A stretch of DNA of 64,000 nt, from positions 10,168,001 to 10,232,000 of the forward strand of contig CATOCA020000001.1 in NCBI GenBank assembly GCA_951406725.2, given 5' to 3'. Source of the stretch: Octopus vulgaris (Eukaryota). Each line of letters begins with the position of its first letter. Position 1 is the first letter of the stretch. Below are positions 21,372 to 63,081 of this stretch, piece after piece. Under the pieces are notes generated by a model, which worked only from the letters and a program-made list of their open reading frames with translations, was not told where the DNA came from and searched no databases. The translations under genes and the position numbers were made by a program.

Positions 21372-21562
21372 ATGTTTCACCACATAGTATCATATAGACG
21401 GTCTCTTGTGTTGATACTGTGTACGATATTGTTTTTGGAGACTCAAGCTGATTCAGATATATGCAATATATGTAATTGCAATTCACTTACAACGAGAATA
21501 AATTGTGGAGGTCGCAATTTACTATCAATTCCACAACCAATTCCGACGAATGTTGAATATTT
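21372..21562 (+). CDS. Coding exon 1: signal peptide + LRRNT cap (MFHHIVSYRRSLVLILCTILFLETQADSDICNICNCNSLTTRINCGGRNLLSIPQPIPTNVEYL)
   Basis: Acceptor ttcttttacag ends 21351; ATG at 21372; hydrophobic N-terminus; CxxCxC...INCxxRNLxSIPxPIP LRRNT motif; donor TT|gtaagt (phase 2). Confidence 0.9.
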
Positions 21563-23899
21563 GTAAGTATTTGACACTTTCTACGTATTTTCCACATCCA
21601 ATATTTTAAATTCTCATTGATTATGTTCTCAGCTAATCGCTTATGCTGTTTATCTCACAGCTTTAAGCACAATCTTATGTTAGAGTAAAACAAATCGATA
21701 TGTTACCTGCTGTGAAGTCAAATAAACTGTTACTTACCATATTGAATTTATAATATATAACATCGCATACACAGAGATTGGATATGACTAGTATCTGACT
21801 TTGATTTCATTTGTCTGAACTTATCAAATCTTACGGTATATTCAATGAACGGACAGTGTAAAAACTTTAGTGCTAAGAAAACGTGTATTCCACATAGTTA
21901 TATTATATCATTAATTAGTTGAATTGTTGCTTATTATTACAGTAATATGATATAATATCAGTTGATCGTGTCACAGAATAATTGTTAATTATTTTTTTTG
22001 TTAATTTTATAATAGAATATGCAGCGAGCTATCAGAATCGTTGTTCACGCCAGACAAAATGTTAAGCGGTATTTCGTTCGTCTTTACGTTTCGATTTTAA
22101 ATTCTGTCGAGGTTGACTTTGCTTTTCATTCATTTGGAGTCGGTAAAATAAATAGCAATTTATCTCTGAGATCAATGTAAAGGACTTGTCCCTTTCCCAA
22201 AATTTCAGGTTTGTTCCTATAGAAGAAATGATTATTTTTATAATTAAAAATGAAACAGATGGATTAAACAGCAGATAATGACGAGATCCGCTTAAATTGC
22301 CAAATTCTTAAAATACCTAAGTGAAGAAATCAAAATAGTGTTGTTTTAACAAATTATGAGGAATTTATTTTTGATAGAATGTCATCAGTAAAATTTACCC
22401 TATCATGAACACAATAAACCTTATTACAAAATTATGCAAGCTTAATTGAAGTGTCGGCTGATTGATGTATCCCCGTTCACCTGAAAATTTACGTAATTTT
22501 TAAGTAAATTATTAAAATTTAACATCTCAAGAAATGGAATAGAATAATACATGTTATGATACATGCAATCATAACAAATATTCTGTTGCAACACATTGCT
22601 CTTCCAGGTGATTATTTCCAGTTAATTGGCTTGCATCGTTGCATTAATCACCTTAAACTTTCAGTTTTAATCAAATATTCTAATACTAAAGTGGATCAAT
22701 TCATTCGATCAGATCTATTTCTCAAAACATTTGGAACGTTTTGACAAAATGAGAAATCCTAATGTAAAATAAAGAGAAAAGTTTCAATAATGGAATTTCT
22801 AAATCTCGTATAACTCAAGATGTTGAATAGTAAAGTTGAAGTTCTGTTTAATAAGTTAAGATATTCTCATCGTTCATAACTTGAGCGAGGTTTGGCACAA
22901 ATCATTTGACCGTCTAGCAGAATACATTGCGTTCTGACACACGGCAATCTGACTTCAAATCCCGCCAAGGTCAACCTTGGGTCATTCATTTCCGAGATCA
23001 ATAAAGAACCATAACAGTTCAATGAACAAATGCAACTATGAGGACCTCGAATAAGACACCTTGCAGTATATTGTCCAGGTGTTTGTGATCTGAGTTAAAA
23101 TCCCACACTTTTTATTTTACCGATTTTGGAGAAAGGATCAGACAAGTTTTTTAACCCCTGCAAGATCTCCAATACTTGTGAGACAGATATCATTAATATT
23201 CCGCTTGAGCTGTTGCAGGTCAACCTTTACAGAAATGATGAACAGGGATACTCTTCAGGAGATGAAGGATTTAGCATAGGTAGTTAATAATGGGAACAAA
23301 CAGAGGTTTAATACAGCAAGGGTAAGGAGCAAAGGGCTAAACAAAGACTAAAAAACTAAGGCAATGTATGTTGCCACATCCCTTTTTTAAATAACACCCT
23401 TAACCAGTTAAATCACCATGTAAGGTTGTTCTCCTTTGTAGCACATAACTCAAAATTAAATAAGGGTTTCCCCACTCTACCATCACCAATTCTATTAATA
23501 AATCCCTTTCTATTTCTGTTATGTTTTCCTTCCTAGTCTATTATTTCAGTCTTGACGTTTTGGGGGTTTATTTATTTTTGTGAAGAACTTTTATGCATCA
23601 ATTATACAAAGGAAAGGAGTTTACTTTTGCAAAGATAAATTACTTTTTACAGCAAAGTGTAATAACAAATAGAATGCTCATTGGACAGAAACAAGATATT
23701 TATAAATAAAGCTGACTTCTGAGATGATAAAAATATCTTCCACTGAAAACTGATGTTGCAACGAAGGCTTTGTAAATCTAATTCAAATCACAAATATTTT
23801 GAACATCCATTCTTCTCTCATATTTTACATGCATGTGTGTTTTTCATTCATACTTTACGTAGTGACTTAAATCTGTTTTATATCTTATATAATAAAATA

Positions 23900-24665
23900 T
23901 ACGTAAATGCAAACAGAACCTTCGTGAAGAAGAAAAGGAAGCTTACAAACTGAAGAAGGACAATTCAATCATCCTAAAAGAAACCGATTAGAGAAGGGTG
24001 ATAGCAGTCACGGACCAAGACTACTATAAAGATAAAATATTGGAAACAGACTAATCCTGCTCAAGGAAGAACCAAGACACCCGGAGAAAGTAATAGTGAA
24101 TACACTCAAAAGTCTGATAAATGAATACCAACGTTCGTTCCCAGATAAAGAGAAAGATTATTTATGCAGCTCTGTAATGAAAGAGAGTAATTTCTATGGA
24201 TCACCCAAGATCCACGAATGCTCCAAAATGCAAGGATCAGCATATAAAAGTACTAAGACCTACTGACATCAAATTGAGACCAACAGTTGCTGGACCTTGA
24301 GCCCCAACACAACAACTGAGCCATCTTTTGGATATACTCCTCAAACCGTTATGCCCATTAATGGCCAGCTATACCCGAGACGATAAGGATTTCCTCAAGC
24401 ACATTCCACCCACTGTCCCAGAACGTACTATACTTAAAATATTTGACTAATCTTTGTACTAATACATCACACTTTGGGCCTGGAAGCAATCAAACACTGG
24501 GTAGAAAAACATAGCGGACGGATGGACGAACGCTTCAAAACGCATTTCCAAAGACACACGCCGGGAACTAGAAGACAACACCTTTAGATTCGATAATAAA
24601 CTATATCGACAGGTAAAAAGAACACCACTACCGGGACGAGGTTCGCACACATTCTCGAACCCAGA
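23900..24665 (+). mobile_element. Degenerate Penelope-like RT fragment in intron 1
   Basis: Decayed motifs NSIILKE.D, NFYG.PKIH, LRP.VAGP, SY.RDDKDFL, FRFDNKLYRQVK...GTRFA with frameshifts and stops. Confidence 0.7.
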
Positions 24666-25549
24666 GGTAGATATACATATGTGTGTATGTGCGTATATAT
24701 GCATACATGTGCGTGTATGTGTGTGGATGTGTTTGTTGGTACATAGAGACGCGAAGCGGATACTCGAGGTTGTGCAAGTCAAGAAGGAAATAAACATGAA
24801 ACGGCTGTCACATTGAGACATTCTTCTCCTCCTGCTGTTTCTTCTTCTTCTTCTTCTTCTTCTTCTTCTTCTTCTTCTTCTTCTTCTTCTTCTTCTTCTC
24901 CGTCTTCTTCTTCTTCTTCTTTTTCTTCTCCCTCCTCTTCTCCCTCTTCGTCTTCGTCTTCTTCTTCCTTTTCTTCTTCTTCTTTTTCTTCCTTTTCTTC
25001 GTCTTCTTCCTTTTCTTCGTCTTCTTCTTTTTCTTCTCCCTCTTATTCTTCCTCTTCTTCTTCTTCTTCTTCTTCTTCTTCTTCTTCTTCTTCTTTTTCT
25101 TCTTCTTTTTCTTCTCTGTACTTTCTGCTTCGTCACTGGTCTCCCTCTTTTCCATTCTCTGCCAATTCTTCCTCTTATTCTCATTCTCCTGCTCTTCCTG
25201 CTCCTTCTGCTGCTACCCCCAGCTGCCCCTCCTCAGTCATCCCTTCCTTTGTCCTCCTCCTAACATCCCCGCCTCTCCACATCCTCCGCCTCCTCCACCT
25301 CCTCCGCCTCCTCCACCTCCTCGTCAATTCTCCTTCCTCTTTCTTCTTCTTCTTCTTCTTCTTCTTCTTCTTCTTCTTCTTCTTCTCCTACTCAACCTTC
25401 TTCTCCTCCTTCTTCTTCTTCTTCTTTCTTCTTCTTCTTCTTCGTTATCTTTCTTCTTTTTCTTCCTTTCATTCTGAAGTCAAAGTGTTTGATGTCGCAT
25501 CACAAATATTTTCCATATAATCTATTTTACTCTTTCTTTACTGCTATAG

Positions 25550-25621
25550 ATATCTGTACGAGAACAACATTGCAACCATCAAAGAAGGTACATTCACGGG
25601 GCTTTCAAATTTAAAAGAATT
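25550..25621 (+). CDS. LRR cassette exon 2 (YLYENNIATIKEGTFTGLSNLKE-)
   Basis: 72 nt, ctgctatag|A ... TT|gtaag, phase 2-2, typical 24-aa LRR consensus. Confidence 0.92.
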
Positions 25622-27784
25622 GTAAGTTCGTTTAATTTCTTGATACTATTTTCCGAAAGTAATAATTGATGCTGATATATAAGCTCACAAATGTATAAAA
25701 TTTCAGACTGCGCCAAACAAAATCAATTCGAATTTGTAGAATGAACAAGATTTAGGAAGATACAAAGAGAATATGAGAGATTGAGACAATGTGAAAGAAA
25801 GAGAGAGAATTTGAGACAGAAAATGAAATAATAGGAAAAATATAATGTTCCTTTATTGTAGTTGCTTTGTTTCAATTCGCATCTCAATAACTCATTTTTG
25901 TTCCCCAAATTTCAATGATTTTGATATGAATTTGTATTAGAAATGGTAACGTTTGTGAGTGTACATGTTTGCATCAAATATTTTTAGCTGAAGTATATGT
26001 GTATGTTCATATATAAGTGTAGTTCTGTGTGAAATATGAATATATTATTCCTTTATTTTATATTTTGCATCTTCCTCCATTTCTTATTTCAATATTCTCC
26101 TTCGTGTTTCGATATTATCATTCAATTTCGAATTTTGTCATTCACTTCACGTTATTTATGTAATAGACTAACTGAAGTGGAAGCGGAAAATATATATTCG
26201 AATAATATAGTCACATACATTCTATCTGTAAACCTGAAATACTTACTGTACTTGTAAGCTGGAATATTTGGCCTGATACAATGAAACAGCTGATATATTT
26301 CTTGTGAGCGTGTGTTTTCTAATATTCTTGTGACAATGAAGCGATATGAAATAAATAATCTCTCTCACCATATTTCCCTAAGGGTGAGTGGGAATATGTG
26401 TGATGTGAGTGTGCATACCGCATTCCGTCGTTGTTACTATGAATATAAGAATGCGTATGAGTGCATTTGAATATGTTGATTTCTGATTCCGTATATTCCC
26501 TGATTTTTCAGCCATGTCTTCTCGCCCAAAATTTATCGATCTATCCTTGAATTATTTCCTGATATTTTGAGAACATTTTCAGTTTCATCATGAACGCCAT
26601 GATTTTCAATGTGTCTTCTTCTTCTTCTTTTTGTTCTTTTTGTTGTTGTTGTTGTTCTTCTTCTTCTTATCTTCTTATCTTCTTCTTCTTCTTCTTCTTC
26701 TTCTTCTTCTTCTTCTTCTTCTTCTTCTTCTTCTTCTTCTTCCTCTGCCTATCCTCCTGCAACTCCTCCTGCTCCTTCTTTTTCTTCTATTCATCTTCTT
26801 CTTCTTCTACTTCTACTTCTTCTTCTGCTTCTTCTTCTTCTTCTTCTTCTTCTTCTTCTTCTCCTTCTTCCTCCTCCTCTCCTCCTTCTCCTCCTCCTCC
26901 TTCTTCTTCTTTTCTTCTTCTTCTACTCCTCCACCTCCTCATCCCCCTACTACTCTTTTTTCTATTTTTTCTTCATCTTCATCTTCATTTTCTTTTCATA
27001 ATTCTCTTCCTATCAATCTCCCTCGATCTCCTCCTCCTTTCTCTTCTTGTTATTCTCCTCCTCACATCCCTGTCCCCCTACTGCTCCTTTTTCTTCTTCT
27101 TCTTCTACTTTCCCTCCTCGTCTTCCTCCTTCTTTCCTTTTTCTTCATCTTCTCTTTCTTCAACTTCATTTTTTCTTCTCCTACTTCATCTACTTCTCCT
27201 CCTCCTTTTCTTCTTCTTATCTTCTTCTTCTTTTACTTCTCCTACTTCTCCTTCCCCCTTCAACCACCTCCTCCTCCCCCTTTTTCCTCCTCTTCCTTCT
27301 TCTACTTCTTCTGTTTTTTCTTCTTCTTTTTCTTCTTTCTTCTTCTTCTTCTTCTTCTTCTTCTTCTTCCTATTCTTTTTCTCCTTCTTCTTCTACTTCG
27401 TTTTCTTCTTCGCCTCCTCCTCCTCCTTCTTCATCTTGTTTTTCTTTTACTTCTTCGTTTTCTTCTTCTTCTTCTTGTAATTCTCCCTCTCCATCCTCTT
27501 CATCCTCATCCTTCTTCTTCTTCTTTTTCTTCTCCCTTCTTTTTTTTCTTCTTCTTCTGTCTTTCAATACTTTTTCGGTTTTCATCTTGAACACCTTCAT
27601 TTTCCATGTCTTCTTCTTCTTCTTCTTTTTCTTCTCTTCTCCTCCTCCTCCTCCTCCTTCTTCTCCTTCTTCTTCCTCGTTATCTTTCTTCTTTTTCTTC
27701 CTTTCATTCTGAAGTCAAAGTGTTTGGTGTCGCATCACAAATATTTTCCATATAATCTATTTTACTCTTTCTTTACTGCTATAG

Positions 27785-27856
27785 TGCTCTGCAAGAGAAC
27801 AACATTGCAACCATCAAAGAAGGTGCATTCACGGGGCTTTCAAATTTAAAAGAATT
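27785..27856 (+). CDS. LRR cassette exon 3 (ALQENNIATIKEGAFTGLSNLKE-)
   Basis: 72 nt, ctgctatag|T ... TT|gtaag, phase 2-2. Confidence 0.9.
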
Positions 27857-30486
27857 GTAAGTTCGTTCAGTTTCTTGATATTATTTTCCGAAAGTAATAA
27901 TTGATGCTGATATATAAGCTCACAAATATATAAAATTTCAGATTGCATCGAACAAAATCAATTCAAATTTGTAAAATGAACACGATTTAGGAAGATACAA
28001 AGAGAATATGAGAGATTGAGACAATGTGAAAGAAAGAGAGAGAAATTGAGAGAGAAAGTGAAATAATAGGAAAAATATAATGTTCCTTTATTGTAGTTGC
28101 TTTGTTTCAATTCGCATCTCAATAACTCATTTTTGTTCCCCAAATTTCAATGATTTTGATATGAATTTGTATTAGAAATTGTAACGTTTGTGAGTTTACA
28201 TGTTTGCATCAAATATTTTTAGCTGAAGTATATGTGTATGTTCATATATAAGTGTAGTTCTGTGTGATATGTGACTATATTATTTCTTTATTTTATATTT
28301 TGCATCCTCCTCCATTTCTTATTTCAATATTCTCCTTCGGGTTTCGATATTTTCATTCAACTTCGAATTTTGTCATTCACTTCACGTTATTTATGTAATA
28401 GAGCAACTGAAGTGGAAGCGGAAAATATATATTCGAATAATATAGTCACATACATTCTATCTGTAAACCTGAAATACTTACTGTACTTGTAATCTGGAAT
28501 ATTTCGCCTGATACTATTAAACTGCTGATATATTTCTTGTGAGCGTGTGTTTTCTAATATTCTTGTGACAATGAAGCGATATGAAATAAATAATCTCTCT
28601 CACCATATGTCCACAAGGGTGAGTGGGAATATGTGTGATGTGAGTGTGCATACCTCATTCCGTCGTTGATACTATGAATATAAGAATGCGAATGAGTGCA
28701 TTTGAATATGTTGATTTCTGATTCCGTATATTCCCTGATTTTTCAGCCATGTCTTCTCGCCCAAAATTTATCGATCTATCCTTGAATTATTTCCTGATAT
28801 TTTAAGAACATTTTCAGTTTCATCTTGAACGCCATAATTTTCAATGTATCTTCTTCTTCTTCTTCTTCTTCTTCTTCTTCTTCTTCTTCTTCTTCTTCTT
28901 CTTCTTCTTCTTCTTCTTCTTCTTCTTCTTCTTCTTCTTCTCCCTCTCCTTCTCCTTCTTCTTCTTCTTCTTCTTCTCCTCCCTCTTCTACTTCTTTTTC
29001 TTCCTCTTCCTCTCCTCCTGCTGCTCCTTCTCCTCCTTCTTTTTCTTCTCTTCTTTTTCTTCTTTTCCTTCTTCTTCTTCTTCTTCTTCTTCTTCTCTTC
29101 TTTTCTTTTTCTTCTCTTTCTACTCCTCTTACTCCTTCTTCCTCTTCTAATTTCTTTCTTCTTCTTATTCTTCATTTTCTTCTTTAAATTCTCTTCCCCT
29201 CCACTCCGCCCCTCCTCCTCATTTTTCTACTTGTAATTCTCCTCCTCCCCACCTCTCCTTCTCGTTTTTCTTTTTCTTCTTCTTCTACTTTATCTTCTTC
29301 CTCTTCTTCTTCTTCGTCTTCTTCTTCTTCTTCTTCTTCTTCTTCTTCTCCTTCTCCTTATTCTTTTTCTTCTTCTCTCGCTTCTACTTTTTTCTTCCTC
29401 TTCTTCTCCTACATCCTCTTCTACTTTCAACTTTTTCAACTCCTCCTCCTCCTCCTCCTCCTTCTTCTTCTTATTCTTTTTCTTTTTCTTCTACTCCTAC
29501 TTTTCCCCTTCATTGCTTCCTCCTCCTTTTTCCTTTTCCTTCTTCTACTTATTTTTTCCTCTTCTTTCTTTCTTCCCAATCCTCTCCGCCCCTCCTCCTC
29601 CTTTTTTTCTTGTAATTCTCCTCCTCCCCCTCCTCTCCCGCTTCTTTTTCTTCTTCTTCTGCGTTTTCTTCTTCTTCTTTTCCTCCTCCTCCTTTTTCTT
29701 TTCTTCTTCTCATTTTTCTACTCTTTTTTCTTCTTATACTTCTCCTTCTTCTTCTTCTTCTACTACTTTCTACTTCAACATCTACTTCTCCTCCTACTCC
29801 TCTTTCTTCTTCTTATATTCTTCTTTTTGTTATTCTCATCCTACTCCTCCTTCATCTTCTTCTTTTTCATCTTCTCCTACTTATTCTTTCCCATCATTCT
29901 CCTCCTTTTTCCTCCTCTTCCTTCTTTCTCTTCTTATTCTTCTTCTTTTTCTTCCTCTCCTTCTTTCTACTTCTTCTCCTTCTCCTCCTCCTCCTCCTCC
30001 TCCTCCTTCTTCATCTTCTTTTTCTTTTTCCTGCTTCTACTTCCTCTACGTCTTCTTCTTGTTCTTCTCTTCTTTCTTGTTGCAATTCTACTTCTTCCTC
30101 TCCCCCTCCCCATCCTCCTTCATTTTCTTTTTCTTCTTTTTCTTTTTCTTCTTCTTCTTCTTCTTTCTACTTCTTCATCTACTTGTCATCCTCCTCCTCC
30201 TCCTCCTCCTTCTTCTTTTACTTTTTCCGCTTCTACTTCTTCCCTTTTACCATCCTCCTCCTCCTTTTTCCTCCTAAACCTTCTTCTTCTTCTTTTTCTT
30301 CTTCTTCTTTCTTCTTCTACTGATTCTTATTCTTCTTCTTTTTCTTCTTCTTCACCTCCTCCTCCTCCTCCTTCTTCTTCGTCATCTTTCTGCCTTTTCT
30401 TCCTTTTTTTCTGAAGTCACAGCGTTTGATGTCGTATCACAAATATTTTCAATATAATCTATTTTACTCTTTCTTTACTACCACAG

Positions 30487-30558
30487 AGCTCTTTGGGGCA
30501 ACAACATAGCAACCATCAAAGAAGGAGCATTCACGGGGCTTTCGAATTTAAAAGAATT
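30487..30558 (+). CDS. LRR cassette exon 4 (ALWGNNIATIKEGAFTGLSNLKE-)
   Basis: 72 nt, ctaccacag|A ... TT|gtaag, phase 2-2. Confidence 0.92.
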
Positions 30559-32482
30559 GTAAGTTCGTTCAGTTTCTTGATACTATTTTCCGAAAGTAAT
30601 AATTGATGCTGATATATAAGCTCACAAATGTATAATATTTCAGACTCCACCAAACAAAATCAATTCAAATTTGTAGAATGAACAAGATTTAGGAAGATAC
30701 AAAGAGAATATGAAAGAGCGAGACAATGTGAAAAAAGAGAGAGAATTTGAGAGAGGAATTGAGATAATAGGAAGAATATAATGTTCCTTTATTGTAGTTG
30801 CTTTGTTTCAATTCGCATCTCAATAACTCATTTTTGTTCCCCAAATTTCAATGATTTTGATATGAATTTGTATTAGAAATGGTAACGTTTGTGAGTTTAC
30901 ATGTTTGCATCAAATATTTTTAGCTGAAGTATGTGTGTATGTTCATATATAAGTGTAGTTCTGTGTGAAATGTGACTATATTATTCTTTTATTTTATATT
31001 TTGCATCCTCCTCCATTTCTTATTCCAATATTCTCCTTCGTGTTTCGATATTATCACACCAACTTCGAATTTTGTCATTCACTTCACGTTATTTATGTAA
31101 TAGAGCAACTGAAGTGGAAGCGGAAAATATATAATCGAATAATATAGTCACATACATTCTTTCTGTAAACCTGAAATACTTACTGTACTTGTAAACTGGA
31201 ATATTTGGCCTGATACAATTAAACTGCTGATATATTTCTTGTAAGCGTATGTTTTCTAATATTCTTGTGACAATGAAGCGATATGAAATAAATAATCTCT
31301 CTCACTATATTTCCACAAGGGTGAGTGGGAATATGTGTGATGTGAGTGTGCATACCGCATTCCGTCGTTGATACTATGAATATAAAAATGCGTATGAGTG
31401 CATTTGAATATTTTGATTTCTGATTCCGTATATTCCCTGATTTTTCAGCCATGTCATCTCGCCCAAAATTTATCGATCTATCCTTGAATTATTTCCTGAT
31501 TTTTTAAGAACATTTTCAGTTTAATCTTGAACGCCATAATTTTCAATGTATTTTCTTCGTCTTCTTCTTCTTCTTCTTCTTCTTCTCCTCCCTCTTGTTC
31601 TTCTTCTTCTTCTTCTTCTTCTTCTTCTTCTTCTTCTCCTTCTCCTTCTTCTTCTTCTTCTTCTTCTTCTTCTTCTTCTTCTTCTTCTTCTTCTTCCTCT
31701 CCTCCTGCTGCTCCTTCTCCTCCTTCTTTTTCTTCTCTTCTTTTTCTTCTTTTCCTTCTTCTTCTTCTTCTTCTTCTTCTCTTCTTTTCTTTTTCTTCTA
31801 CTTCTACTCCTCCTACTCCTTCTTCCTCTTCTAATTTCTTTCTTCTTCTTATTCTTCATTTTCTTCTTTAAATTCTCTCCCCCTCCACTCCGCCCCTCCT
31901 CCTCATTTTTCTTCTTGTAATTCTCCTCCTCCCCTCCTCTCCTGCTCGTTTTTCTTCTTCTTCTTCTTCTTCTTCTTCTTCTTCTTCTTCTTCTTCTTCT
32001 TCTTCTTCTTCTTCTTCTTCTTCTTCTCCTTCTCCTTATTCTTTTTCTTCTTCTCTCGCTTCTACATATTTCTTCTTGTTCTCCTACATCCACTTCTACT
32101 TTCAACTTTTTCAACTTCTCCTCCTTCTCCTCCTCCTTCTTCTTCTTATTCTTCTTCTTTTTCTTCTACTCCTACTTTTCCCCTTCATTGCTTCCTCCTC
32201 CTTTTTCCTCTTCCTTCTTCTACTTCTTTTTTCCTCTTCTTTCTTTCTTCCCAATCCTCTCCGCCCCTCCTCCTCCTTTTTTCTTGTAATTCTCCTCCTC
32301 CCCCTCCTCTCCCGCTTCTTTTTCTTCTTCTTCTGCGTCTTCTTCTAATTCTTCTCCTTCTTCTTCTTCTTTCTACTTCTTCATCTACTTGTCATCCTCC
32401 TCCTCCTCCTTCTTCTTCTTTTACTTTTTCCGCTACTACTTCTTCCCTCTTACCATCCTCCTCCTCCTTTTCCCTCCTATTC

Positions 32483-32513
<31 letters not shown>

Positions 32514-33832
32514 TTCTCCTTTCTTCTTCTACTGATTCTTATTCTTCTTCTTTTTCTTCTTCTTCGCCTCCTCCTCCTCCTCCTTCTTCTTCTTCCTTTT
32601 CTTCTTCGTTATCTTTCTTCTTTTTCTTCCTTTCATTCTGCGTTTGATGTCATCTCGCCCAAAATTTATCGATCTATCCTTGAATTATTTCCTGATTTTT
32701 TAAGAACATTTTCAGTTTAATCTTGAACGCCATAATTTTCAATGTATTTTCTTCGTCTTCTTCTTCTTCTTCTTCCTCTGCCTATCCTCCTGCACCTCCT
32801 CCTGCTGCTTCTTTTTCTTCTATTCATCTTCTTCTTCTACTTCTACTTCTACTTCTGCATCTTCTTCTTCTTCTTCTTCTTCTTCTTCTTCTTCTTCTTC
32901 TACTACTTCTCCTTCTTCCTCCTCCTCTCCTCCTTCTCCTCCTTCTCCTCCTTCTCCTCCTCCTCCTTCTTCTTCTTTTCTTCTTCTTCTACTCCTCCAC
33001 CTCCTCATCCCCCTACTACTGTTTTTTCTATTTTTTTCTTCATCTTCATCTTCATTTTCTTTTCATAATTCTCTTCCTATCAATCTCCCTCGATCTCCTC
33101 CTCCTTTCTCTTCTTGTTATTCTCCTCCTCACATCCCTTTCCCCCTTCTTCTACTTTCCCTCCTCGTCTTCCTCCTTCTTTCCTTTTTCTTCATCTTCTC
33201 TTTCTTCAACTTCATTTTTTCTTCTCCTACTTCATCTACTTTTCCTCCTCCTTTTCTTCTTCTTAACTTATTCTTCTTTTACTTCTCCTACTATTCCTTC
33301 CCCCTTCAACCACCTCCTCCCCCCTTTTTCCTCCTCTTCCTTCTTCTACTTCTTCTGTTTTTTCTTCTTCTTTTTCTCCTTCCTCTCTTCTTCTTCTTCT
33401 TCTTCTTCTTCCTATTCTTTTTCTCCTTCTTCTTCTACTTCGTTTTCTTCTTCGCCTCCTCCTCCTCCTTCTTCATCTTGTTTTTCTTTTACTTCTTCGT
33501 TTTCTTCTTCTTCTTCTTCTTCTTCTTCTTGTAATTCTCCCTCTCCCTCCTCTTCATCCTCATCCTTCTTCTTCTTCTTTTTCTTCTCCTTCTTCTTCTT
33601 TTTTTTCTTCTTCTGTCTTTCAATACATTTTCGGTTTTCATCTGGAACACCTTCATTTTCCAAGTCTTCTTCTTTTTCTTCTTTTTCTTCTTCTTCTCCT
33701 CCTCCTCCTCCTCCTTCTTCTTCCTCGTTATCTTTCTTCTTTTTCTTCCTTTCATTCTGAAGTCACATTGTTTGATGTCGCATCACAAATATTTTCCATA
33801 TAATCTATTTTACTCTTTCTTTACTGCTATAG

Positions 33833-33904
33833 AGCCCTGTACGAGAACAAGATTTCAACCATCAAAGAAGGTGTATTCACGGGGCTTTCGAATTTAAAGA
33901 CATT
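33833..33904 (+). CDS. LRR cassette exon 5 (ALYENKISTIKEGVFTGLSNLKT-)
   Basis: 72 nt, ctgctatag|A ... TT|gtaag, phase 2-2. Confidence 0.92.
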
Positions 33905-35235
33905 GTAAGTTCGTTCAGTTTCTTGATATTATTTACCGAAAGTAATAATTGATGCTGATATATAAGCTCACAAATGTATAAAATTTCAGAGTGCATCGAA
34001 CAAAATCAATTCAAATTTGTAGAATGAACAAGATTTAGGAAGATACAAAGAGAATATGAGAGAGCGAGACAATGTGAAAAAAGAGAGAGAATTTGAGAGA
34101 GAAAGTGATATAATAGGAAAAATATAATGTTCCTTTATTGTAGTTGCTTTGTTTCAATTCGCATCTCAATAACTCATTTTTGTTCCCCAAATTTCAATGA
34201 TTTTGATATGAATTTGTATTAGAAATGGTAACGTTTGTGAGTGTACATGTTTGCATCAAATATTTTTAGCTGAAGTATATGTGTATGTTCATATATAAGT
34301 GTAGTTCTGTGTGAAATATGAATATATTATTCTTTTATTTTATAATTTGCATCTTCCTCCATTTCTTATTTCAATATTCTCCTTCGTGTTTCGATATTAT
34401 CACACCAACTTCGAATTTTGTCATTCACTTCACGTTATTTATATAATAGAGCAACTGAAGTGGAAGCGGAAAATATATAATCGAATAATATAGTCACATA
34501 CATTCTATCTGTAAACCTGAAATACTTACTGTACTTGTAAGCTGGAATATTTGGCCTGATACAATTAAACTGCTGATGTATTTCTTGTAAGCGTGTGTTT
34601 TCTAATATTCTTGTGACAATGAAGCGATATGAAATAAATAATCTATCTCACCATGTTTCCACAAGGGTGAGTGGGAATATGTGTGATGTGAGTGTGCATA
34701 CCGCATTCCGTCGTTGATACTATGAATATAAAAATGCGTATGAGTGCATTTGAATATGTTGATTTCTGATTCCGTATATTCCCTGATTTTTCAGCCATGT
34801 TTCTCGCCCAAGATTTATCGATCTATCTCTTCATATTCTTCTCCTCTTCATTTCCACTTCATTTCTTCTTCTTCTTCCTTTTCTTATTCTTCGTCTTCCT
34901 CTTCTTCTTCTTCTTCCTCCACCATTCCTCCTCCTCCTCGTCATTCTTTTTCTGCTTCCTCTTCTTCTTCTTCTTCTCCTTCTTCTTCTTCTTCTTCTCC
35001 TTCTTCCGCAATTCCTCCTGCACCTCCTCCTCGTCCTTCTTTTTCTTCTACTTCCTCTTCTTCTTCTTCTTCTTCTTCTTCTTCTTCTTCCTCCACCATT
35101 CCTCCTGCTCCTCCTCCTCGTCCTTCTTCTTCTTCTTCTTCTTCTTCTTCCTCTTCTACTTCTTCCTCCGCCATTCCTCATGCTCCTCCTCCTCGTCCTT
35201 CTTTTTCCTCTTCTTCTTTATCTTCTTCTTCTTCT

Positions 35236-35270
<35 letters not shown>

Positions 35271-35949
35271 TTCCTCCACCATTCCTCCTGCTCCTCCTCC
35301 TCTCGTCCTTCTTCTTCTTCTTCCTCCGCCATTCCTCATGCTCCTCCTCCTCGTCCTTCTTTTTCTTCTTCTTTATCTTCTTCCTCTCCTTCTTCTTCTT
35401 CTTCTTCTTCTTCTTCTTCTTCTTCTTCTTCTTCTTCTTCTTCTTCTTCTACTTCTTCTTCTTTCTACTTCTTCTTCTTCTGCTTCTTCTTCTTCTTCTT
35501 TTTCTCCTCCTCTACTTCCTCTTCTTGTTTCTTTCTTGTTCTTGTTCTTCTGCTTCTTCTTCTTCTTTTTCTCCTCCTCTACTTCCTCTTCTTGTTTCTT
35601 TCTTGTTCTTTTTCTTCTATTTCTTCTTCTTCCTTCTTCTTCTTCTTTTCTTCTTCTTCTTCTTCTTCTTTTCTTCTTCTCTTTCTTGTTCTTATTCTTC
35701 TACTTCTTCTTCCCTCCTTCTTCTTCTTCTTTTTCTTCTCCTCTACTTCCTCTTCTTGTTTCCTTCTTCTTCTTCTTCTTCTTCTTCTTCTTCTTCTTCT
35801 TCTTCTTCTTCTTCTTCTTCTTCTTCTTCTTCTTCGTCTTCTTCTTCTTCCCTTATTCGTTATACTACCATATAAATTCTTTCTTCACATAATGAACATT
35901 ATTCAATATTTCTTCGCAATTACATACGATGTGAAACTAAGCAACGTTT

Positions 35950-35990
35950 CTTCCTGCTTCATATATCTTCTGAACGATGACATTTTTTCG
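35950..35990 (+). pseudogene. Decayed LRR pseudo-exon (exon-7 type) with acceptor CAG mutated to CAT
   Basis: ttcctgcttcat|A TAT CTT CTG AAC GAT GAC ATT parallels ttcctgcttcag|A GGT CTT GGC AAC AAT AAA ATT of exon 7. Upstream (35880-35960 vs 39840-39919) and downstream (36030-36090 vs 40110-40180) flanks are also similar. No intact donor seen. Confidence 0.6.
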
Positions 35991-38083
35991 CATTTCCTTA
36001 ATATATCGACGAAGCAACTACTGGACTCTATTCATGATATATCTCTTTGAATGTGTCTGGACATGACAACGACTGGCAGTTATTTATCCGCATTGTCGTT
36101 AGATTAATTTCTTCTTCTTCTCCTTCTTCTTCTTCTTCTTCTTCTTCTTCTTCTTCTTCTTCTTCTTCTTCTTCTTCTTCTTCTTCTTCTTTTTCTTCTT
36201 CTTCTTCTTCTTCTTCTTCTTCTTCTTCTTCTTCTTCTTTTCTTCTTCTTTATCTTCTTCTTCTTCATTTCTTCTATTCTTCTTTTCTCTTCCACTTCTC
36301 CTTCATTTTCTTCTTGTAATTCTCTTCCACTTCTCCTTCATTTTCTTCTTGTAATTCTCTTCCACTTCTCCTTCATTTTCTTCTTGTAATTCTCTTCCTC
36401 CTCCTCTTCTTCCCCTCTCCCTCCTTTTTCTTCCCCTCTCCCTCCTTTTTCTACTTCCTCTTCTTCTCCTTCTTTTTCTCCTCCTTCTTCTTATTATTAT
36501 TCTTCTACATCTTCTCCTTCTTCTCCTCCACCTTCTTCTTATTTTTCTTCTACTCCTCCTCGTCTTCCTCCTCCTTCTCTTTCTTCTTCTTCTTCTTCTT
36601 CTTCTTATTCTCCTTCTTCTTCTTCTTCTTCTTCTTTTTCTTTTCTTCTTCTTCTACTTCTTCTCCCCCTCCTCCTCGTCCTCCTCCTCCTTCTTCCTCT
36701 TCTAATTGTTTTTCTTCTTCTTGTTCTTCTTGTTCTTCTTTATTTTCTTTATTTATTTCTCTTCCACCTCCTCTCCACCCCTCCTCCTCCTTTTTCTTCT
36801 TGTAATTCTCCTACTCCCCCTCCTCCTTTCCTGCTTTTTTTCTTCTCCTTCTTCTTCTCTTCCTCGTCCTCCTTCATTTTCTTCTTCTTCTTCTCTCTTT
36901 TCTACTTCTTTTTATCTATTTCTTTTTCTTCATCTTTTTCTCCTTCATCTTCTTCTTCTACGTCTTCTTCTTCTTCTTCATCTTAAACTTCTTCTTCTTC
37001 TTCTCCTTCTCTTTCTTCTTTATCCTCTTATTCTTCGTCCTCTCGCCTGCTGCTCCTTCTCTTTCTTCTTCTTCTTCTTCTTCTTATTCTTATTCTCTTC
37101 CTTCGTCTTCTACCTCTCCTCCTCGTCCTCCTTCTTATTCATTTTTTCTTCTTCTTCTTCTTCTTCTTCTTCTTCCTCCTCTTCTTGTTTTTCTTCTACT
37201 CCTACTTCTACCACTTTATCCTCCTCCTCCTCCTCCTTTTTCCTCTTCCTTCTTCTTCTATTCCTTTTTTTCCCCTTGTTTTTCTAGTTCTTCTAATTCT
37301 TCTTCTTCTTCTTCTACTTCTCCTCCTCGTTTTCCTCCTTCTTTTTTCTTCTTCTCTTTCGTCTACTTCCTTTTTTTTCTTTTTCTACTTCTTTATGTAC
37401 TTCTCCTCCTACTTTTTTCTTCTTCTTATCTTCTTCTTTTTGTTATTCTCCTTCTCCTCCTCCTCTTTCATCTTCTTCTTCTTCTTCTTTTTCTTCTACT
37501 TCTTATTCTTCCCTTTCATTCTCCTCCTCCTTTTTCGTCCTCTTCCACCTTTTTCTTTTCTTCTCCTTCTTCTCCTTCTACTTTTTCTTATTCTTCTTCT
37601 CCTCCTCCTCCTCCTTCTTCTTCTTCTTGTTGCAATTCTTCTTCTTCCCCTCCACCTCCTCATCCTCCTTCTTTTACCTTTTCTTCGTCTTCATCTACTT
37701 CTCCCCTTCCACTTCCTATTTCTTCTTCTTATATTCTTCTTTTTATTATTCTCCTCCTCCTTCTCCTTCTCCTTCTTCTTTTTCTCCTTATCCTAGTTCT
37801 TCTTCCCTTTTATCCTCCTCCTCCTCCTTTTCCTCCTAATCCTTATTCTTCTTCTTTTCTTCCTCTTCTTTTTCTTCTTCTCCATTCTTCTTCTTCTAAT
37901 TCTTCTTCTTCTTTTTCTTCCTCTTCGCCTTCTCCTCCTCCTTCTTCTCCTTCTTCTTGTTTTTCTTCTTCTTCTTCGTTATCTTTCTTCTTTTTATTCC
38001 TTTCATTCTGAAGTCACAGTTTTTGGTGTTTTCTCACAAATATTTTCCATATAATCTATTTTACTCTTTCTTTACTGCTATAG

Positions 38084-38155
38084 ATATCTTGGTTCCAACA
38101 ACATAGCAACCATCAAAGAAGGAGCATTCACGGGGCTTTCGAATTTAAAGGAATT
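38084..38155 (+). CDS. LRR cassette exon 6 (YLGSNNIATIKEGAFTGLSNLKE-)
   Basis: 72 nt, ctgctatag|A ... TT|gtaag, phase 2-2. Confidence 0.92.
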
Positions 38156-39919
38156 GTAAGTTCGTTTAGTTTCTTGATACTATTTTCCGAAAGTAATAAT
38201 TGATGCTGATATATAAGCTCACAAATGTATAAAATTTCAGACTGCACCAAACAAAATCAATTCGAATTTGTAGAATGAACAAGATTTAGGAAGATACAAA
38301 GAGAATATGAGAGAGCGAGACAATGTAAAAGAAAGAGAGAGAATTTGAGAGAGAAAGTGAAATAATGGGAAAAATATAATGTTCCTTTATTGTAGTTGCT
38401 TTGTTTCAATTCGCATCTCAACAAATCATTTTTGTTTCCCAAATTTCAAAGGTTTTGATATGAATTTGTATTAGAAATGGTAACGTTTGTGAGTTTACAT
38501 GTTTGCATCAAATATTTTTAGCTGAAGTATATGTGTATGTTCATATATAAGTGTAGTTCTGTGTGAAATGTGACTATATTATTTCTTTATTTTATATTTT
38601 TCATCCTCCTCCATTTCTTATTTCAATATTCTCCTTCGTGTTTCGATATTATCATTCAACTTCGAATTTTGTCATTCACTTCACGTTATTTATGTAATAG
38701 AGCAACTGAAGTGGAAGCGGAAAATATATATTAGAATGATGTAGTCACATACATTCTAATATATATTTAAGTACATTTTCAGTTTCGTCTTCAACACCAT
38801 GATTTTCAATGTGTCTTCTTCTTCTTCTTCTTCTTCTTCTTCTTCTTCTTCTTCTTCTTCTTCTTCTTCTTCTTCTTCTTCGTCTTCTTCTTCTTCTTCC
38901 TCTACTTCTTCTGTTTCTCCTCCTCTTTTTAATCTTCTACATCTTCCTATTCTGCTGTACGCTCTGCTCCTCCCCCTCCCTTCTTTTACTTCTTCTAATT
39001 CTTCTTCTTCTTCTCCTTCTTTTTCTCCTTCTTCTCTTTCTTCTTTTTCTTCTTCTACTTCTCCTCCTTGTCTTCCTCCATCTTTTTCTTTTATTTTTCT
39101 CTTTCTACTACTTTTATTTTTCTTCTTCTTCTTCTTACTTCTCCTTCTTCTTCTTCCCCTTCATCCGCCTCCTTCTCCTTTTTTCTCATCTTCTTTTTTT
39201 CTCCTTCTTTTTTTTCTACTTCTTCTTCTTCTTCTTCCTATTCTTTTGCTTCTACTTGTTATTCTTCTTCTCCTTCTTCTCCTTTTCCTTCTTCTTCTAC
39301 TTCTCCTCCTCGTCTTCCTTCTTTTTTCTTTTTCTTCTTCTCCTACATCTACTTTCTACTTGTTCTCTTCCTCTTTCTCCTCTTCCTCCTCCTTCTTCAT
39401 ATCCTTCTTCTTCTTCTTCTTCTTCTTTTTCCTGCTTCGTCTTCTTCTTCGTCTTCTTCCTTTTCCTCTTCTTCTTCTCCTTTTTCCTTCCTCTTCTTTT
39501 CTTTCCTCTTCTTCTTTTTCTCCTCACCGTCCTCCTTGTACTTCTTCTTTTTCTTCCTCCTCTTTTTAATCTTCTACATCTTCTTCTTCTTCTAGTCTAC
39601 CCTCTGCTCCTCTTCCTATTTTCCTCTCCCTCCTGTATCTTCTGGTCTTATTCCGTCCTCAACCTTCTTCTTTTCCTCCACTCCTTCTCCTCCATCTCTT
39701 CCTTTTTCTACCTCTTCTCCCCCTCCTCTTCCTCCATGTCTTCTTTTCCCCTTCTCCTCCCCTTCTTCTTTGTCTTCTTCTTCTCCTCAATCTCTTTCCT
39801 GTTCCTCTTCTTCTCGTATTATTTTCCTATAATTTTGTCCCTTTTCATAAAGAACAATATTGAATATGTTATCGCAATTCACACTATGTCAATCTAACCA
39901 ATATTGTTTCCTGCTTCAG

Positions 39920-39992
39920 AGGTCTTGGCAACAATAAAATTTCAAGGATTGAAAAAAGAGATGTTTCAAGGCCTTCACAACTTAGAGACATT
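39920..39992 (+). CDS. LRR exon 7, divergent type, 73 nt with apparent +1 frameshift (GLGNNKISRIEK/EMFQGLHNLET-)
   Basis: ctgcttcag|A ... TT|gtaag. Removing one A from the A6 run at 39952-39957 gives a 72-nt canonical LRR. Confidence 0.8.
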
Positions 39993-40657
39993 GTAAGTTC
40001 TTTCAATGTTGTCGTTTATACATGAGGAATATACTATGTCTTTAAATTTAATATCCCCTTATTTCCATGTTTTCTCACTCTCTATTACTGTAAATCATAT
40101 TCAGTTCTCATATTCGTGTTATATTTATTTGATTGAGTCTGAACATGTCAATGACTGTCAGTTGATAATTGTCTGCATAAAAATGTTATTCCTGAAAATA
40201 TATGTGTATGTTCATATGTATGTATGTATCTGCACTATTAATATAAGGTTTAGCTACTATTTTCTTACACATTGTTCTCTTGATTCTGTGCTGCCGTGTG
40301 GTTATTTATCCATACTTCCACCAAAATAAATTTTTGCTATTGTTGTTGTTGTTGTTTTGTTCTTCTTCTTGTAATTCTCCTATTCCCCTCCTCCTCCACC
40401 TCCTTCTCCTACTTTTTCTTCTTCTTCTTCTTATTGCAATTCTCCTCTTCAACCTCCCCTCTTCGTCCTACTCATCCTCCTTTTTCTTCAATTTCTTCGT
40501 TCTCTTCTATTCTTCTTCTTCATCTTCTTCGTCTTTTTCTTCTTTCCTTCTTCATCTTCTTCATGTTCCTCTTCTTCTACTTCTTCCTTTTCTTTGTCTT
40601 CTTCTTCTTCTTCTTCTTCTTTTTCTTCTTCTTCTTCTTCTTCTTCTTCTTCTTCTT

Positions 40658-40688
<31 letters not shown>

Positions 40689-46753: not shown

Positions 46754-46825
46754 ATTTTTGTATTACAACCTAATAGAAACATATGAAGATGGCGCTTTCT
46801 TATTCCTTCCCAGCATAGCTACAAT
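46754..46825 (+). CDS. LRR exon 8 (FLYYNLIETYEDGAFLFLPSIAT-)
   Basis: 72 nt, ctctttttcag|A ... AT|gtaag, phase 2-2, LRR consensus. Confidence 0.88.
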
Positions 46826-50214: not shown

Positions 50215-50372
50215 TAACCTCCAATACAATAACCTTATGAAGTGTGGATGTCACTTGCCAGCCTTCGTTAAGTATATTAAAGATGTCTATAACAGAACTG
50301 TTGATATCTTTGGTACGTGTCAGGAAGGCTCAGGGAAACGAATACCTATACTGGATTATTCGCAATGTCAAA
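50215..50372 (+). CDS. Exon 9: final LRR strand + LRRCT cap (NLQYNNLMKCGCHLPAFVKYIKDVYNRTVDIFGTCQEGSGKRIPILDYSQCQ)
   Basis: attattacag|T acceptor, A|gtaagt donor; NxxxCxCxL...C...C four-Cys LRRCT pattern; phase 2-1. Confidence 0.88.
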
Positions 50373-55351: not shown

Positions 55352-55443
55352 ATTACTCGTTATATCAACGGAATTTACAGTGTCAAACATGTTCAGGAAT
55401 TAAATGCAATAAATCGGAAGTGACAAGCTGTCCAGAAGCAGAG
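55352..55443 (+). CDS. Exon 10: start of Ly6/uPAR-like domain (NYSLYQRNLQCQTCSGIKCNKSEVTSCPEAE)
   Basis: attctgtag|AT acceptor, GAG|gtaaac donor; phase 1-0; LxCxxC start typical of LU/three-finger domains. Confidence 0.82.
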
Positions 55444-57420: not shown

Positions 57421-57604
57421 CCTGTATGCCGATTCGCAATATCAATGAACGGTGATAAACTGAAGACTGAAAGGTCCTGCAGCACATACAGAAAATGTGT
57501 TGAAGCTATGAGAAACAATACCCTTACATGCAATAAACGGACGAATGGCACGTCTTGTACTGGTTGTTGCGTCGGACACTTATGTAACAAGAATGATTTC
57601 ATTG
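57421..57604 (+). CDS. Exon 11: rest of Ly6/uPAR-like domain (PVCRFAISMNGDKLKTERSCSTYRKCVEAMRNNTLTCNKRTNGTSCTGCCVGHLCNKNDFI)
   Basis: attattacag|C acceptor, G|gtaagt donor; phase 0-1; ends in the CCxxxLCN signature. Confidence 0.88.
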
Positions 57605-57717: not shown

Positions 57718-57755
<38 letters not shown>

Positions 57756-58026: not shown

Positions 58027-58078
<52 letters not shown>

Positions 58079-58197: not shown

Positions 58198-58280
58198 GCT
58201 GGACCAAATCCCTCGTATTTCGTTTGATTTTTAAAAAGTTCAACGAATATAAAATCCCTGCTGAGAACATATCAAGAGCC
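58198..58280 (+). CDS. Exon 12 (GWTKSLVFRLIFKKFNEYKIPAENISRA)
   Basis: tccatag|GC acceptor, GCC|gtgagt donor; phase 1-0, exactly the phases needed to bridge exons 11 and 13. Confidence 0.72.
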
Positions 58281-58651: not shown

Positions 58652-58688
<37 letters not shown>

Positions 58689-59249: not shown

Positions 59250-59302
59250 ATTGAGCATGACCTTTCAACCGTGACGGGAACATTTAGAGTTGAAGACTGT
59301 GG
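59250..59302 (+). CDS. Exon 13 (IEHDLSTVTGTFRVEDC-)
   Basis: cttttgcag|ATT acceptor, GG|gtaagc donor; phase 0-2. Confidence 0.72.
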
Positions 59303-59515: not shown

Positions 59516-59575
<60 letters not shown>

Positions 59576-59614
59576 GTGTGTGTGAATGTGTATAGAAGAA
59601 TATATTAATAAAAG

Positions 59615-61094
59615 AATTCCAACCTTGTCTGATTTTCACGTTTTATTTACAATCTTATAATGATATATTATAAGATAATATATTATAATTGAGTAAAATA
59701 AAATGAAATAGTAGAATGTTAAATATTCATTCTGATTGAACTAGTACTTTCATGCATTGAATTCTGCAATCTTCGGGTTCATGTAGTAGTGTTGACAGTC
59801 ATGCTTCACAATTTTTGACTGTAGCAAGATGAGTGATTCTGTGCTATAAATACAGCTGGGTAGGCTCCAGAGTGCTAGGTTTTGCAAACTGTATTCTGAC
59901 CAATCAGTGTGTAGTATCACTCAATTACTTAAGCTGATTGGTTGGTTGAGCTGATTGGTTTAGGCATCACGCTTTGTTGGACAGGTCAAGAGTCCTGTAT
60001 CTTGACCCTGGCCGAAGCAGCAATTGTTGGGTTATTTTTAGAAATGTTGTAAATATCCTTTGTCAGAGATTTTTATATTTTTATATTTCAATTGTCATCA
60101 TCATCATTGTCAGCACCTTAATTATTGTTGCTAGTGGTGATGGTGGTGGCAATAGAACTTTTAACCCTAAATAAGATAATTTTCCTGCTATCTTCGTCTT
60201 GATCACCTTTAGTATTGTTGTTGTTGTTAGTGGTCATGGTCGTAGCAGTGGAAGTAATACCTCTAAGTATTATTATTATTGCTTATTTAGCTTGGGTTCG
60301 AATTTATCAATAAAATTCTTTTCTCTGATTTTCCTCTCGATTTCACTTGGGCTGTGTAATTTGTAGAATGGAAATATTATATATATTTTCCGACCACATG
60401 TTGCTAGGTGGTTACTCAAAGGTATCTGACGGACCTCTGGGTCTCTAATCTGTTGCCGGTGTACACGTGAGCGTTCTAATAGTGCGTTTCCCGTCTGACC
60501 TACATATATTTCTTCACAATTTGGGCATTTGATGCAGTAAATTAAATTTCTGCTTTTGCAGTTCATATTCGCGTTTGTGAATATTTTCCCGGTTTTTGTG
60601 TTTATATATTGACCGGTATGTATGAATTGGCATGTGCCACATCGGCTATCATTGCATTTAGATACCGTGAATGTTTGGTCTTTGTTGCTGAGGTCAAATT
60701 TTGCCTTTGTTAGTAATGTTTTCAAGTTTTAGGCTGTCTTTTACTAAGCACCATAGCTCGATCCTTGATTATGTCTTTTAATTCATTACTTTGGGCAATG
60801 ATTGGAAGGTTTGCTTTGGCAATGTTGAAGATATTCTGGTGACATGGGTTGTGTGTCACTATGAATGGTATGACTTGTTCTTGTTTTCCTCTTCCTTGGG
60901 TTGTCCTAAGTTGTTGTATAGGTATTTTTATAGCCCGCTGTATGCCATTTTCTATAAGTAGAGATGGGTATTTTTGTTTGAGCAAAATTCTCTTAGTTCT
61001 ATTAGGCGTTTGTTCCTGATATTTGCATCTTCTACAATAGTACAAATTCTTCTGGCTAGGCAGTATGGGATGTTACGTTTTGTATGTGGTGGAT

Positions 61095-61100: not shown

Positions 61101-61132
<32 letters not shown>

Positions 61133-61844: not shown

Positions 61845-61903
<59 letters not shown>

Positions 61904-61909
61904 CTTTCT

Positions 61910-62305
61910 CACTTTTTCTCTCTTTTACTTGTTTCAGTCATTTGACTGCGGCCATGCTGGAGCACCACCTTTAATCGAGCAAATCGACCCCGGGACTTAT
62001 TCTTTGTAAGCCCAGTACTTATTCTATCGGTCTCTTTTGCCGAACCGCTAAGTGACGGGGAGTAAACACACCAGCAATGCTTGGGAGACAAACACAGACA
62101 CACAAACACACACACATACACACACACACATATATATACATATATACGACAGGCTTCTTTCAGTTTCCGTCTACCAAATCCGCTCACAAGGCATTGGTCG
62201 GCCCGGAGCTATAGCAGAAGACACTAGCCCAAGATGCCACGCAGTGGGACTGAACCCGGAACCATGTGGTTGGTTAGCAAGCTACTTACCACACAGCCAC
62301 TCCTG
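61910..62305 (-). mobile_element. Full-length SINE (family B)
   Basis: Head ggagtggctgtgtggtaag (box A) and gggttcagtccc (box B), central (TG)n, 3' tail ccagcatggccgcagtcaaatgactgaaacaagtaaaaga. Confidence 0.85.
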
Positions 62306-62926
62306 TATATGTATAAATACATATATAAAGTGTATTCAAAGATTTCTGCAGGGAGTGAAGACCTTCATGTGGATTTCTTAGTGGACGAATATATTCTTAA
62401 GACCAACTTTTAGTCACCCGCTTGTAGTTCGAGCGTCCTTCACTAATTCTGTTCTCAACCATACTGAATGCGGTTATTTTAGCTATGATAATCCAATCCT
62501 GAGCTATGTTTGAATATAGTGATAGAAAGCGATGTGAAAGACAGTGGTGATGGTGGTGGAGGTGAAAGTGATGAAAAGTATTGATGGTGATGGCGTCAGA
62601 AGTCTGGATGGCGTGTGTATTGCAGATATGGTGGCGATGGTTGTGGTACTGTTGATTATCATGAAGCTTTGCAATAAGTTCCGAGTCGACAAATTATATC
62701 ATTGCTTTGATGAAAATTGTTCATTGCTTGAGAAATATTCATGTTTCATGAAATTTAATATGTACTCAATGCATGGTGTCATTGTTGGACCCAAGGATTA
62801 ACAGGGCAGCTATAAACGAATGTATACATATATATATATCAATGTATGTATATTTCTAGCTAGCTAGCTAGCTACATACATACATACATACCGACATACA
62901 TGTATGTATTTATTTTTTTATTTCAG

Positions 62927-63081
62927 CTCAAACAGAAATAAAATATTTGCTATTTACTGTACAGTATTTAGCGAAATGACTGAAAGTCAACTGCGGCGCA
63001 ATATCTCCCAAGTTTTGAACAATTCCCAGGAATTGCTTAACTTAGGAGTTAAGAAAAGCCACATGAAATTCATTGATGAAA
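62927..63081 (+). CDS. Exon 14 (GSNRNKIFAIYCTVFSEMTESQLRRNISQVLNNSQELLNLGVKKSHMKFIDE)
   Basis: ttttttatttcag|C acceptor, A|gtaagt donor; phase 2-1; open frame matches ORF 62904-63104. Confidence 0.78.

Follow-up and report, generated by a model that had tools for sequence, protein, structure and literature searches.

An octopus LRR-LU-SEA-like gene and its membrane-less paralogs within an adhesion GPCR family

The closest described octopus system is group 3 of an octopus-specific expansion among adhesion G-protein-coupled receptors (GPCRs), which, according to the accessible text of that account, carry a GPS and a seven-transmembrane (7TM) region, with leucine-rich repeats (LRRs) in 5 of 22 sequences, evolve under positive selection and are expressed outside the brain (Ritschard et al, 2019; PMC6408891). 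Here we analyzed a gene in a 64,000-nucleotide stretch of the Octopus vulgaris genome (GCA_951406725.2, contig CATOCA020000001.1, positions 10,168,001 to 10,232,000, forward strand), hereafter the window. It encodes LRRs followed by a predicted Ly6/uPAR three-finger (LU) domain, a predicted SEA-like domain and, just past the window end, a probable HormR domain. The family to which it belongs shares with group 3 the class B/adhesion type, the GPS, the 7TM region and the LRRs, an equation drawn from these traits rather than from accessions. The group 3 survey was selected by GPCR Pfam signatures such as 7tm_2, so that membrane-less paralogs fall outside it; its accessible text mentions no LU or SEA domain and holds no occurrence of Ly6 (PMC6408891).

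An extracellular N-terminal LU is also shared with the starfish receptor LyAr2, whose LU is reportedly 58% similar to human Lynx2/LYPD1 (PMC11595613), and with LU-domain GPCRs of molluscs and arthropods, for which a 2026 figure legend lists GPS and LRR among the domains (PMC13719153). The accessible portions of these two papers name no octopus, SEA, HormR, expansion or 7TM-less form. The same SEA-HormR order occurs in ADGRG6/GPR126, whose zebrafish ectodomain (6v55) matches the octopus model at Z 7.8 (root-mean-square deviation [rmsd] 2.6, 83 residues aligned). GPR126 carries CUB and pentraxin domains where the octopus family has LRR and LU, and the label 'G6-like' is a similarity name. Lamprey VLR and mosquito APL1/LRIM1 are secreted LRR solenoids with variable concave faces, to which the octopus LRRs can be likened; the latter, however, are encoded by ordinary germline exons joined by in-frame splicing, in a multigene family of adhesion GPCR origin.

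The domain combination flagged in the original prediction is old and partly in print, and what we did not find in print is a spliced, expanded paralog set that ends before GAIN. Literature searches, with most subscription journals outside their coverage, returned no publication on membrane-less octopus members, and the accessible text of PMC10138644 does not name the octopus LRR-LU family. We propose, with a probability of roughly 0.55, that the window gene belongs to a young octopus subfamily with its roots in an adhesion GPCR, that its product is secreted, and that its LRR face recognizes fast-changing non-self at body surfaces. Such a subfamily would mean that soluble ectodomains arise through gene structure, not cleavage, and that 7TM-based GPCR surveys miss membrane-less members; the database label 'adhesion GPCR G6-like' may mislead, for example in skin-mucus proteome work. 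With their hypervariable LRR faces, its members would also be concrete candidates, open to testing, for diversified recognition in cephalopods, a group with poorly characterized immune receptors.

The 3′ end of the gene and its paralogs

The original prediction took the gene for the N-terminus of a lineage-specific adhesion GPCR or similar receptor. The family assignment stands, as the paralogs P0027, P0030 and P0013 carry GPS and 7tm_2 (P0030 GPS, Pfam E 1e-11; 7TM in P0027 and P0030), and the window copy is 68–93% identical to receptor paralogs in the LU and 72–84% in HormR. Two receptor loci have GAIN, GPS and transmembrane (TM) exons, one of them with a separate short last exon ending in ETNF. 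The LU exon has at least 40 matches in the genome (40 places scored). As predicted, the window holds no GAIN, TM or TIR exon, and a HormR exon beginning in phase 1 was found downstream, with a second one behind it. Exon 15 lies at 64495-64609 and exon 16 (143 nt) at 66014-66156, both on the + strand and 495 and 2,014 bases past the window end in continued numbering. An assembly gap of 100 N follows at 67643-67742 (3,643 bases past the window end, 1.5 kb after exon 16), with unrelated DNA beyond. In P0005, the public gene model of this locus (559 aa), which agrees with our structure exon for exon, HormR scores Pfam HRM E 0.022 and 15.6 bits against a cut-off of 26.2; in relatives the match is stronger (best E 5.7e-7, 11 of 44 members).

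Exon 16 and its flank recur at eleven other genomic places with 95–99% identity. We mapped 40 kb behind ten of them, together with three more loci that have a 170-nt HormR exon, giving 13 paralogs in all. In every mapped locus (13/13), HormR leads through a degenerate second SEA-like domain (SEA2) to the receptor's own final exon, which closes in ETNF-stop; GAIN, GPS and TM exons are absent from the stretch between HormR and this tail. The arrangement in ten loci is HormR, then three exons of shortened SEA2, then the tail exon 1.4 kb on; farther on, in three of these ten, the other strand carries a TM exon that belongs to another gene. Eleven of the 13 paralogs keep an open frame as far as ETNF-stop. 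The window copy shares a 27-nt deletion in exon 16 with ten membrane-less paralogs, and its last 1,629 bases, from exon 16 up to the gap, align over their whole length with all ten, at 93.5–97.9%. Since SEA2 starts 3.6–11 kb downstream in these paralogs, the gap falls within the post-HormR intron of the window copy, which we infer to end as they do. The window copy is thus probably not a receptor but most likely a member of a subfamily without GAIN, GPS and 7TM, with residual doubt left by the gap.

In the tree, the P0005 clade is separated from every TM-bearing row by a branch with 100/98 support (HormR-less receptors left out). P0025 has an LU-SEA part that groups with receptors, yet it carries the membrane-less end. 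The O. sinensis models P0004 and P0014 end in the same way, so this end is not an artefact of a single assembly. Seven of eight TM-less models have no hydrophobic segment of TM length, and P0021 peaks within its first 109 residues. A Toll-like receptor was rejected for want of a TM segment, and a GPI anchor because the C-terminus is hydrophilic.

The tail exon with its flank has at least 19 matches at 92% identity or more (40 scored). At four receptor loci, tail exons 87–91% alike stand 3–5 kb behind the TM5-7 exons, and the tail is, judged by sequence, homologous to the last exon of the full receptors. The intron before the tail is chimeric: its bases 1-870 are 80% identical to the post-SEA intron and its bases 1317-1458 are 76% identical to a receptor's last intron plus tail. 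A TA-rich repeat occupies 765-870. The simplest reading of this chimera would be that GAIN-7TM was lost by an internal deletion in the origin of the subfamily.

Splicing was followed in contigs of sequencing runs. The tail and its 3′ flank are present in part in 19 of the 24 runs listed; none is recorded as RNA, and their kind was guessed. Four runs guessed to be RNA (four studies, two species labels) were aligned to the SEA2c-tail stretch of one paralog. Contigs of all four skip a 1,398-base intron at GT..AG (joint 3958>5357), and the SEA2b-SEA2c joint is visible as loose ends in three. One contig links SEA1c to SEA2c with 433 letters between them, which agrees, as to length, with the presence of the window-type 143-nt exon. 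This shows splicing for the subfamily, not specifically for the window copy.

Two side observations concern these ends. A membrane-less gene stands tail to tail with a receptor's last TM exons at C1:216.65-216.68 Mb, C7:0.62-0.65 Mb, C14:0.04-0.08 Mb and C31:1.51-1.53 Mb; these four pairs, mostly near contig ends, are probably a duplicated two-gene block. P0058 appears to be an independent second membrane-less form, with HormR joined to a tail like that of another receptor clade, or it may be a gene-model error.

LRR diversification and rival readings

The five type-A LRR exons of the window differ mainly at codons 1, 3 and 4, where the proportion of nonsynonymous differences (pN) is 0.65 (synonymous, pS, 0.49) against 0.04 at other codons; their downstream introns differ by 3–6%. 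We extended the comparison to 60 loci plus the window, receptor and membrane-less genes mixed, in which 55 open type-A exons encode 49 distinct peptides and 27 type-B exons encode 25. At the same three codons, pN reaches 0.61 (A) and 0.59 (B) against 0.10 and 0.08 elsewhere, with intron distances of 0.125 and 0.10; pS is 0.40 and 0.10, respectively. On trees (n=50 and 27), the first and second positions of codons 1, 3, 4 and 23, sites picked after the window exons had been viewed, change 11.9 (A) and 6.8 (B) times per site, compared with 1.9 and 1.3 in introns. These codons, which from known LRR structure we take to be concave-face positions, evolve at about five to six times the intron rate. 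Other modules appear mildly constrained, with pN of 0.021 in HormR and 0.005 in the tail against an intron distance of 0.038, and 0.025 against 0.091 in the LU (few sites, non-independent pairs).

According to the mechanism that we propose, an internal deletion, perhaps at the TA-rich repeat, would have removed GAIN, GPS and the seven helices, leaving ETNF as a relic of the receptor's cytoplasmic tail. With a signal peptide and neither a hydrophobic segment nor a GPI-type tail, the product would be secreted as a soluble protein without signalling of its own. Its variable LRR head would bind fast-changing non-self ligands, such as microbes, at body surfaces, and the constant LU-SEA-HormR stalk may space this head or bind a constant host partner. 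A protein named adhesion GPCR G6, a name borne by many membrane-less models, is listed in the accessible part of a study of O. vulgaris skin mucus (PMC11431876). More tentatively, and at rather less than even odds, an old LRR-LU-SEA GPCR may have given rise to a secreted repertoire through one deletion and about 19 or more copies, with hypervariable one-exon LRR cassettes, paired with membrane receptors that bear the same head. If so, one GPCR family would have yielded both an antibody-like soluble arm and a signalling arm.

Several observations weigh against our proposal. The 3′ end of the window copy is lost in the assembly gap, and membership of the subfamily is by similarity only; the HormR-less receptors P0012 and P0013 have an LU 93% identical to that of the window copy. 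The runs are only presumed to be RNA, their reads are not assignable to a single copy, and they cover the SEA-tail joints rather than the LRR-to-LU joint. Receptor and membrane-less genes stand together in the LRR set, and its parsimony counts are raised by recombination. No constraint is seen in SEA2 (pN 0.052, pS 0.039), whose fold is of low confidence; with copies this young (intron distance 0.038), open frames say little, and among the 13 paralogs one has a SEA2 frameshift and one frame could not be settled. The window gene itself has a frameshift in exon 7. The mucus protein may be a shed receptor.

These points bear on three other explanations. The membrane-less protein could be secreted and yet act on self: it would tune the full-length LRR-LU adhesion GPCRs of the arm nerve cord, suckers or skin, as their decoy or soluble partner, and so take part in a wiring or adhesion code. 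Receptors with a nearly identical LRR-LU head do exist, and in vertebrates the members of the LYPD1/LYPD6 type, to which the LU belongs, modulate receptors. As far as its accessible text goes, the group 3 account places expression in suckers, skin and the axial nerve cord and suggests a protocadherin-like role, but it also reports gill and skin expression in another octopus (PMC6408891). The 49 peptides from 55 type-A exons and the change at the concave face would better fit an arms race than a fixed self ligand, and we consider tuning of self receptors unlikely. It is quite unlikely, too, that the window copy is a dead or dying duplicate in a subfamily that is largely a by-product of repeat-driven segmental duplication. 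Such decay would account for the exon 7 frameshift, a type-B unit with its exon deleted near 43328, frameshifted paralogs, the youth of the copies and an unconstrained SEA2. The frameshift, however, is one extra base in an A run, as is typical of long-read error, and it affects a symmetrical, skippable exon; when the 15 remaining exons are spliced, they yield 535 codons with no stop among them. Splicing of the subfamily joint is seen in 4/4 runs, and pN lies below intron distance in HormR, tail and LU.

Very improbable is the remaining explanation, in line with the original prediction, by which the window copy supplies the N-terminus of a full adhesion GPCR and the gap conceals its GAIN-7TM exons. 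TM5-7 exons are common in the family (at least 43 matches in the genome, 43 of 51 scored), the gap comes just after exon 16, and subfamilies recombine, as in P0025. Against this, the ten mapped loci that carry the 143-nt HormR exon all lack a same-strand GAIN, GPS or TM exon before the tail. GAIN and TM exons are likewise missing from the 118 kb that follow exon 16; beyond the gap, in the rest of the 120 kb covered, tblastn with receptor and SEA2/tail queries detected no GAIN, GPS or TM exon and no second SEA or tail exon either. We retain the secreted, membrane-less subfamily as the preferred reading.

Exon anatomy, module folds and age of the ectodomain

A splice-site search of the + strand placed 14 exons between 21352 and 63081, where the original prediction had put them, with agreeing AG/GT ends and phases. 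Exon 1 (21352..21562) contains the ATG at 21372, the signal peptide (core LVLILCTILFL, 11-residue hydropathy peak 2.9) and the LRRNT (Pfam E 0.0024, under the cut-off). Exons 2 to 8 are seven single-repeat LRR exons in phase 2-2. Five type-A cassettes, the first of 72 nt, occupy 25550..25621, 27785..27856, 30487..30558, 33833..33904 and 38084..38155 (exons 2 to 6); the type-B exon 7 (73 nt) lies at 39920..39992 and the final LRR exon 8 (72 nt) at 46754..46825. Exon 9 (50215..50372) encodes the LRR C-terminal cap, LRRCT. The LU follows in exons 10 (55352..55443, first half, 4 Cys) and 11 (57421..57604, second half, 8 Cys), and the SEA-like parts a, b and c in exons 12 (58198..58280), 13 (59250..59302) and 14 (62927..63081, phase 1 at its end); intron 14 (63082..64000) leaves the window at its end. 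Pfam on individual exons gave only sub-threshold hints.

Exon 7 carries one A more than is usual for its type: 72 nt is the length of 27 of 29 type-B exons, whereas exon 7 and one other have 73. This is either an assembly error or a real frameshift, and the frame is open only if the exon is skipped, as in the public model, or the base is erroneous. Several public O. vulgaris models lengthen exon 9 by 51 bases to an upstream AG (P0005 residues 209-225). The shorter exon seems likelier, as the O. sinensis models examined lack the extension.

Each type-A exon sits in its own tandem unit (window 25250-41101), with about 1 kb of flank 91–94% identical between units and kilobases of CTT/GAA-rich simple sequence between them. 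At 43114-43480, the 5′ and 3′ flanks of a type-B unit are joined directly, the exon and about 400 bases being missing, as in a lost cassette.

The motifs LQCQTC at 55375 and CCVGHLCN at 57565 were found as claimed. The LU module has 12 Cys (spacing 2,4,7,6,16,5,10,8,2,0,4) and ends in the CCxxxxCN pattern. Two of these had been called an extra pair; the count is right, but the module is no oddity, since each of the 12 aligns with human LYPD1. Among PDB sequences, a profile built from 12 family members ranked human LYPD1 first (E 0.055, 12/12 Cys aligned), and by this alignment the LU is of the known 12-Cys LYPD1/LYPD6 type; weak haemagglutinin rows (E 0.2–0.9) were taken as chance. Pfam UPAR_LY6_2 matches exon 11 at E 0.24. 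LU and SEA2 were of low confidence in an earlier model from a 30-row alignment. A later one, of the close paralog P0006 (LU 93% identical to the window copy; 44-row alignment; mean predicted local distance difference test score [pLDDT] 78.8), gives the predicted three-finger fold (LU pLDDT 67–90). In a wide structure search all six listed matches confined to residues 93-178 are LU domains: Prod1 (Z 7.7, rmsd 2.9, 71 aligned), CD59 (7.2, 2.4, 69), LYPD6B (7.0, 3.5, 80), GPIHBP1, LYPD1 (Z 7.0) and PSCA, the Z range of 6.9–7.7 staying below 8 throughout and resting on a predicted model. Human LYPD1 (Lynx2) and LYPD6/6B share the 12-Cys LU with the octopus gene; they are single-domain GPI-anchored proteins, whereas the octopus LU is an internal module.

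The SEA-like module comprises the 96 residues of exons 12–14 and includes FRVEDCG|S, split by an exon junction. A ferredoxin-like β-α-β-β-α-β fold is predicted (pLDDT 82–94, Z 7–9 to ferredoxin folds), as had been anticipated; SEA identity is less clear. SEA-bearing structures (6v55, Z 7.8; 2e7v, 7.5; TMPRSS6, 7.4) tie with or trail generic ferredoxin folds, which reach 8.9 in MscS-type proteins, and the top 50 of the wide search contain no canonical SEA entry. The LU-SEA-HormR model of P0004 has the GPR126 ectodomain as its top Foldseek match (E 3.6e-5); with a second model, nothing in Foldseek reached E <= 0.001 and the entries listed were generic ferredoxin folds, and the ESM Atlas gave no usable match for the SEA-like part. 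Pfam SEA matched only an Argonauta relative, weakly (E 0.013, 1 of 15 proteins). Because the domain sits before HormR, SEA identity is favoured, and 'SEA-like' is a fair label for the predicted fold. In MUC1-type self-cleaving SEA domains, Gly-Ser precedes a hydrophobic strand (GSVVV). The original likening of this GS to the SEA turn was overstated, and GS is no conserved cleavage motif: only 8 of the 33 SEA-like domains aligned retain it, and a polar NRNK loop comes next. Self-cleavage was rejected on the same grounds and appears unlikely.

The ectodomain is not lineage-specific, as had been supposed. Queried with P0025, a set of 1.84 billion representatives yielded 59 matches; the ten examined include LRR...GPS-7TM proteins with the same Cys module in the gastropods Nucella, Plakobranchus and Aplysia and the annelid Lamellibrachia, and a partial one in Argonauta. 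Their order, LRR-LU-(SEA-like)-HormR-GPS-7TM, suggests an LRR-LU-SEA-like ectodomain of at least lophotrochozoan age, and LU-GPCRs are described in the accessible parts of PMC13719153 and PMC11595613. Close relatives from word searches were all from Octopus. A 4.2-kb contig of a sequencing run encodes the relative P0063 (1,155 aa) as one protein, which supports co-splicing of the modules in a relative. Modules are shuffled in P0001, P0003, P0009, P0013, P0043, P0054 and P0073, which have two or three tandem LU domains or lack HormR, SEA or LU. The O. bimaculoides receptor P0051 carries a Death domain after its 7TM region (Pfam E 3.3e-6), which hints at immune or apoptotic signalling.

A broken LINE-type element, recognized from the translation of its endonuclease- and reverse-transcriptase-like frames, lies on the − strand at 8881-12345. 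A 150-codon frame on the − strand within intron 13 (60279-60728) resembles the GIY-YIG endonuclease of a Penelope-type element. Long satellite arrays start about 27 kb past the window end on the same contig (about 10.26-10.35 Mb).

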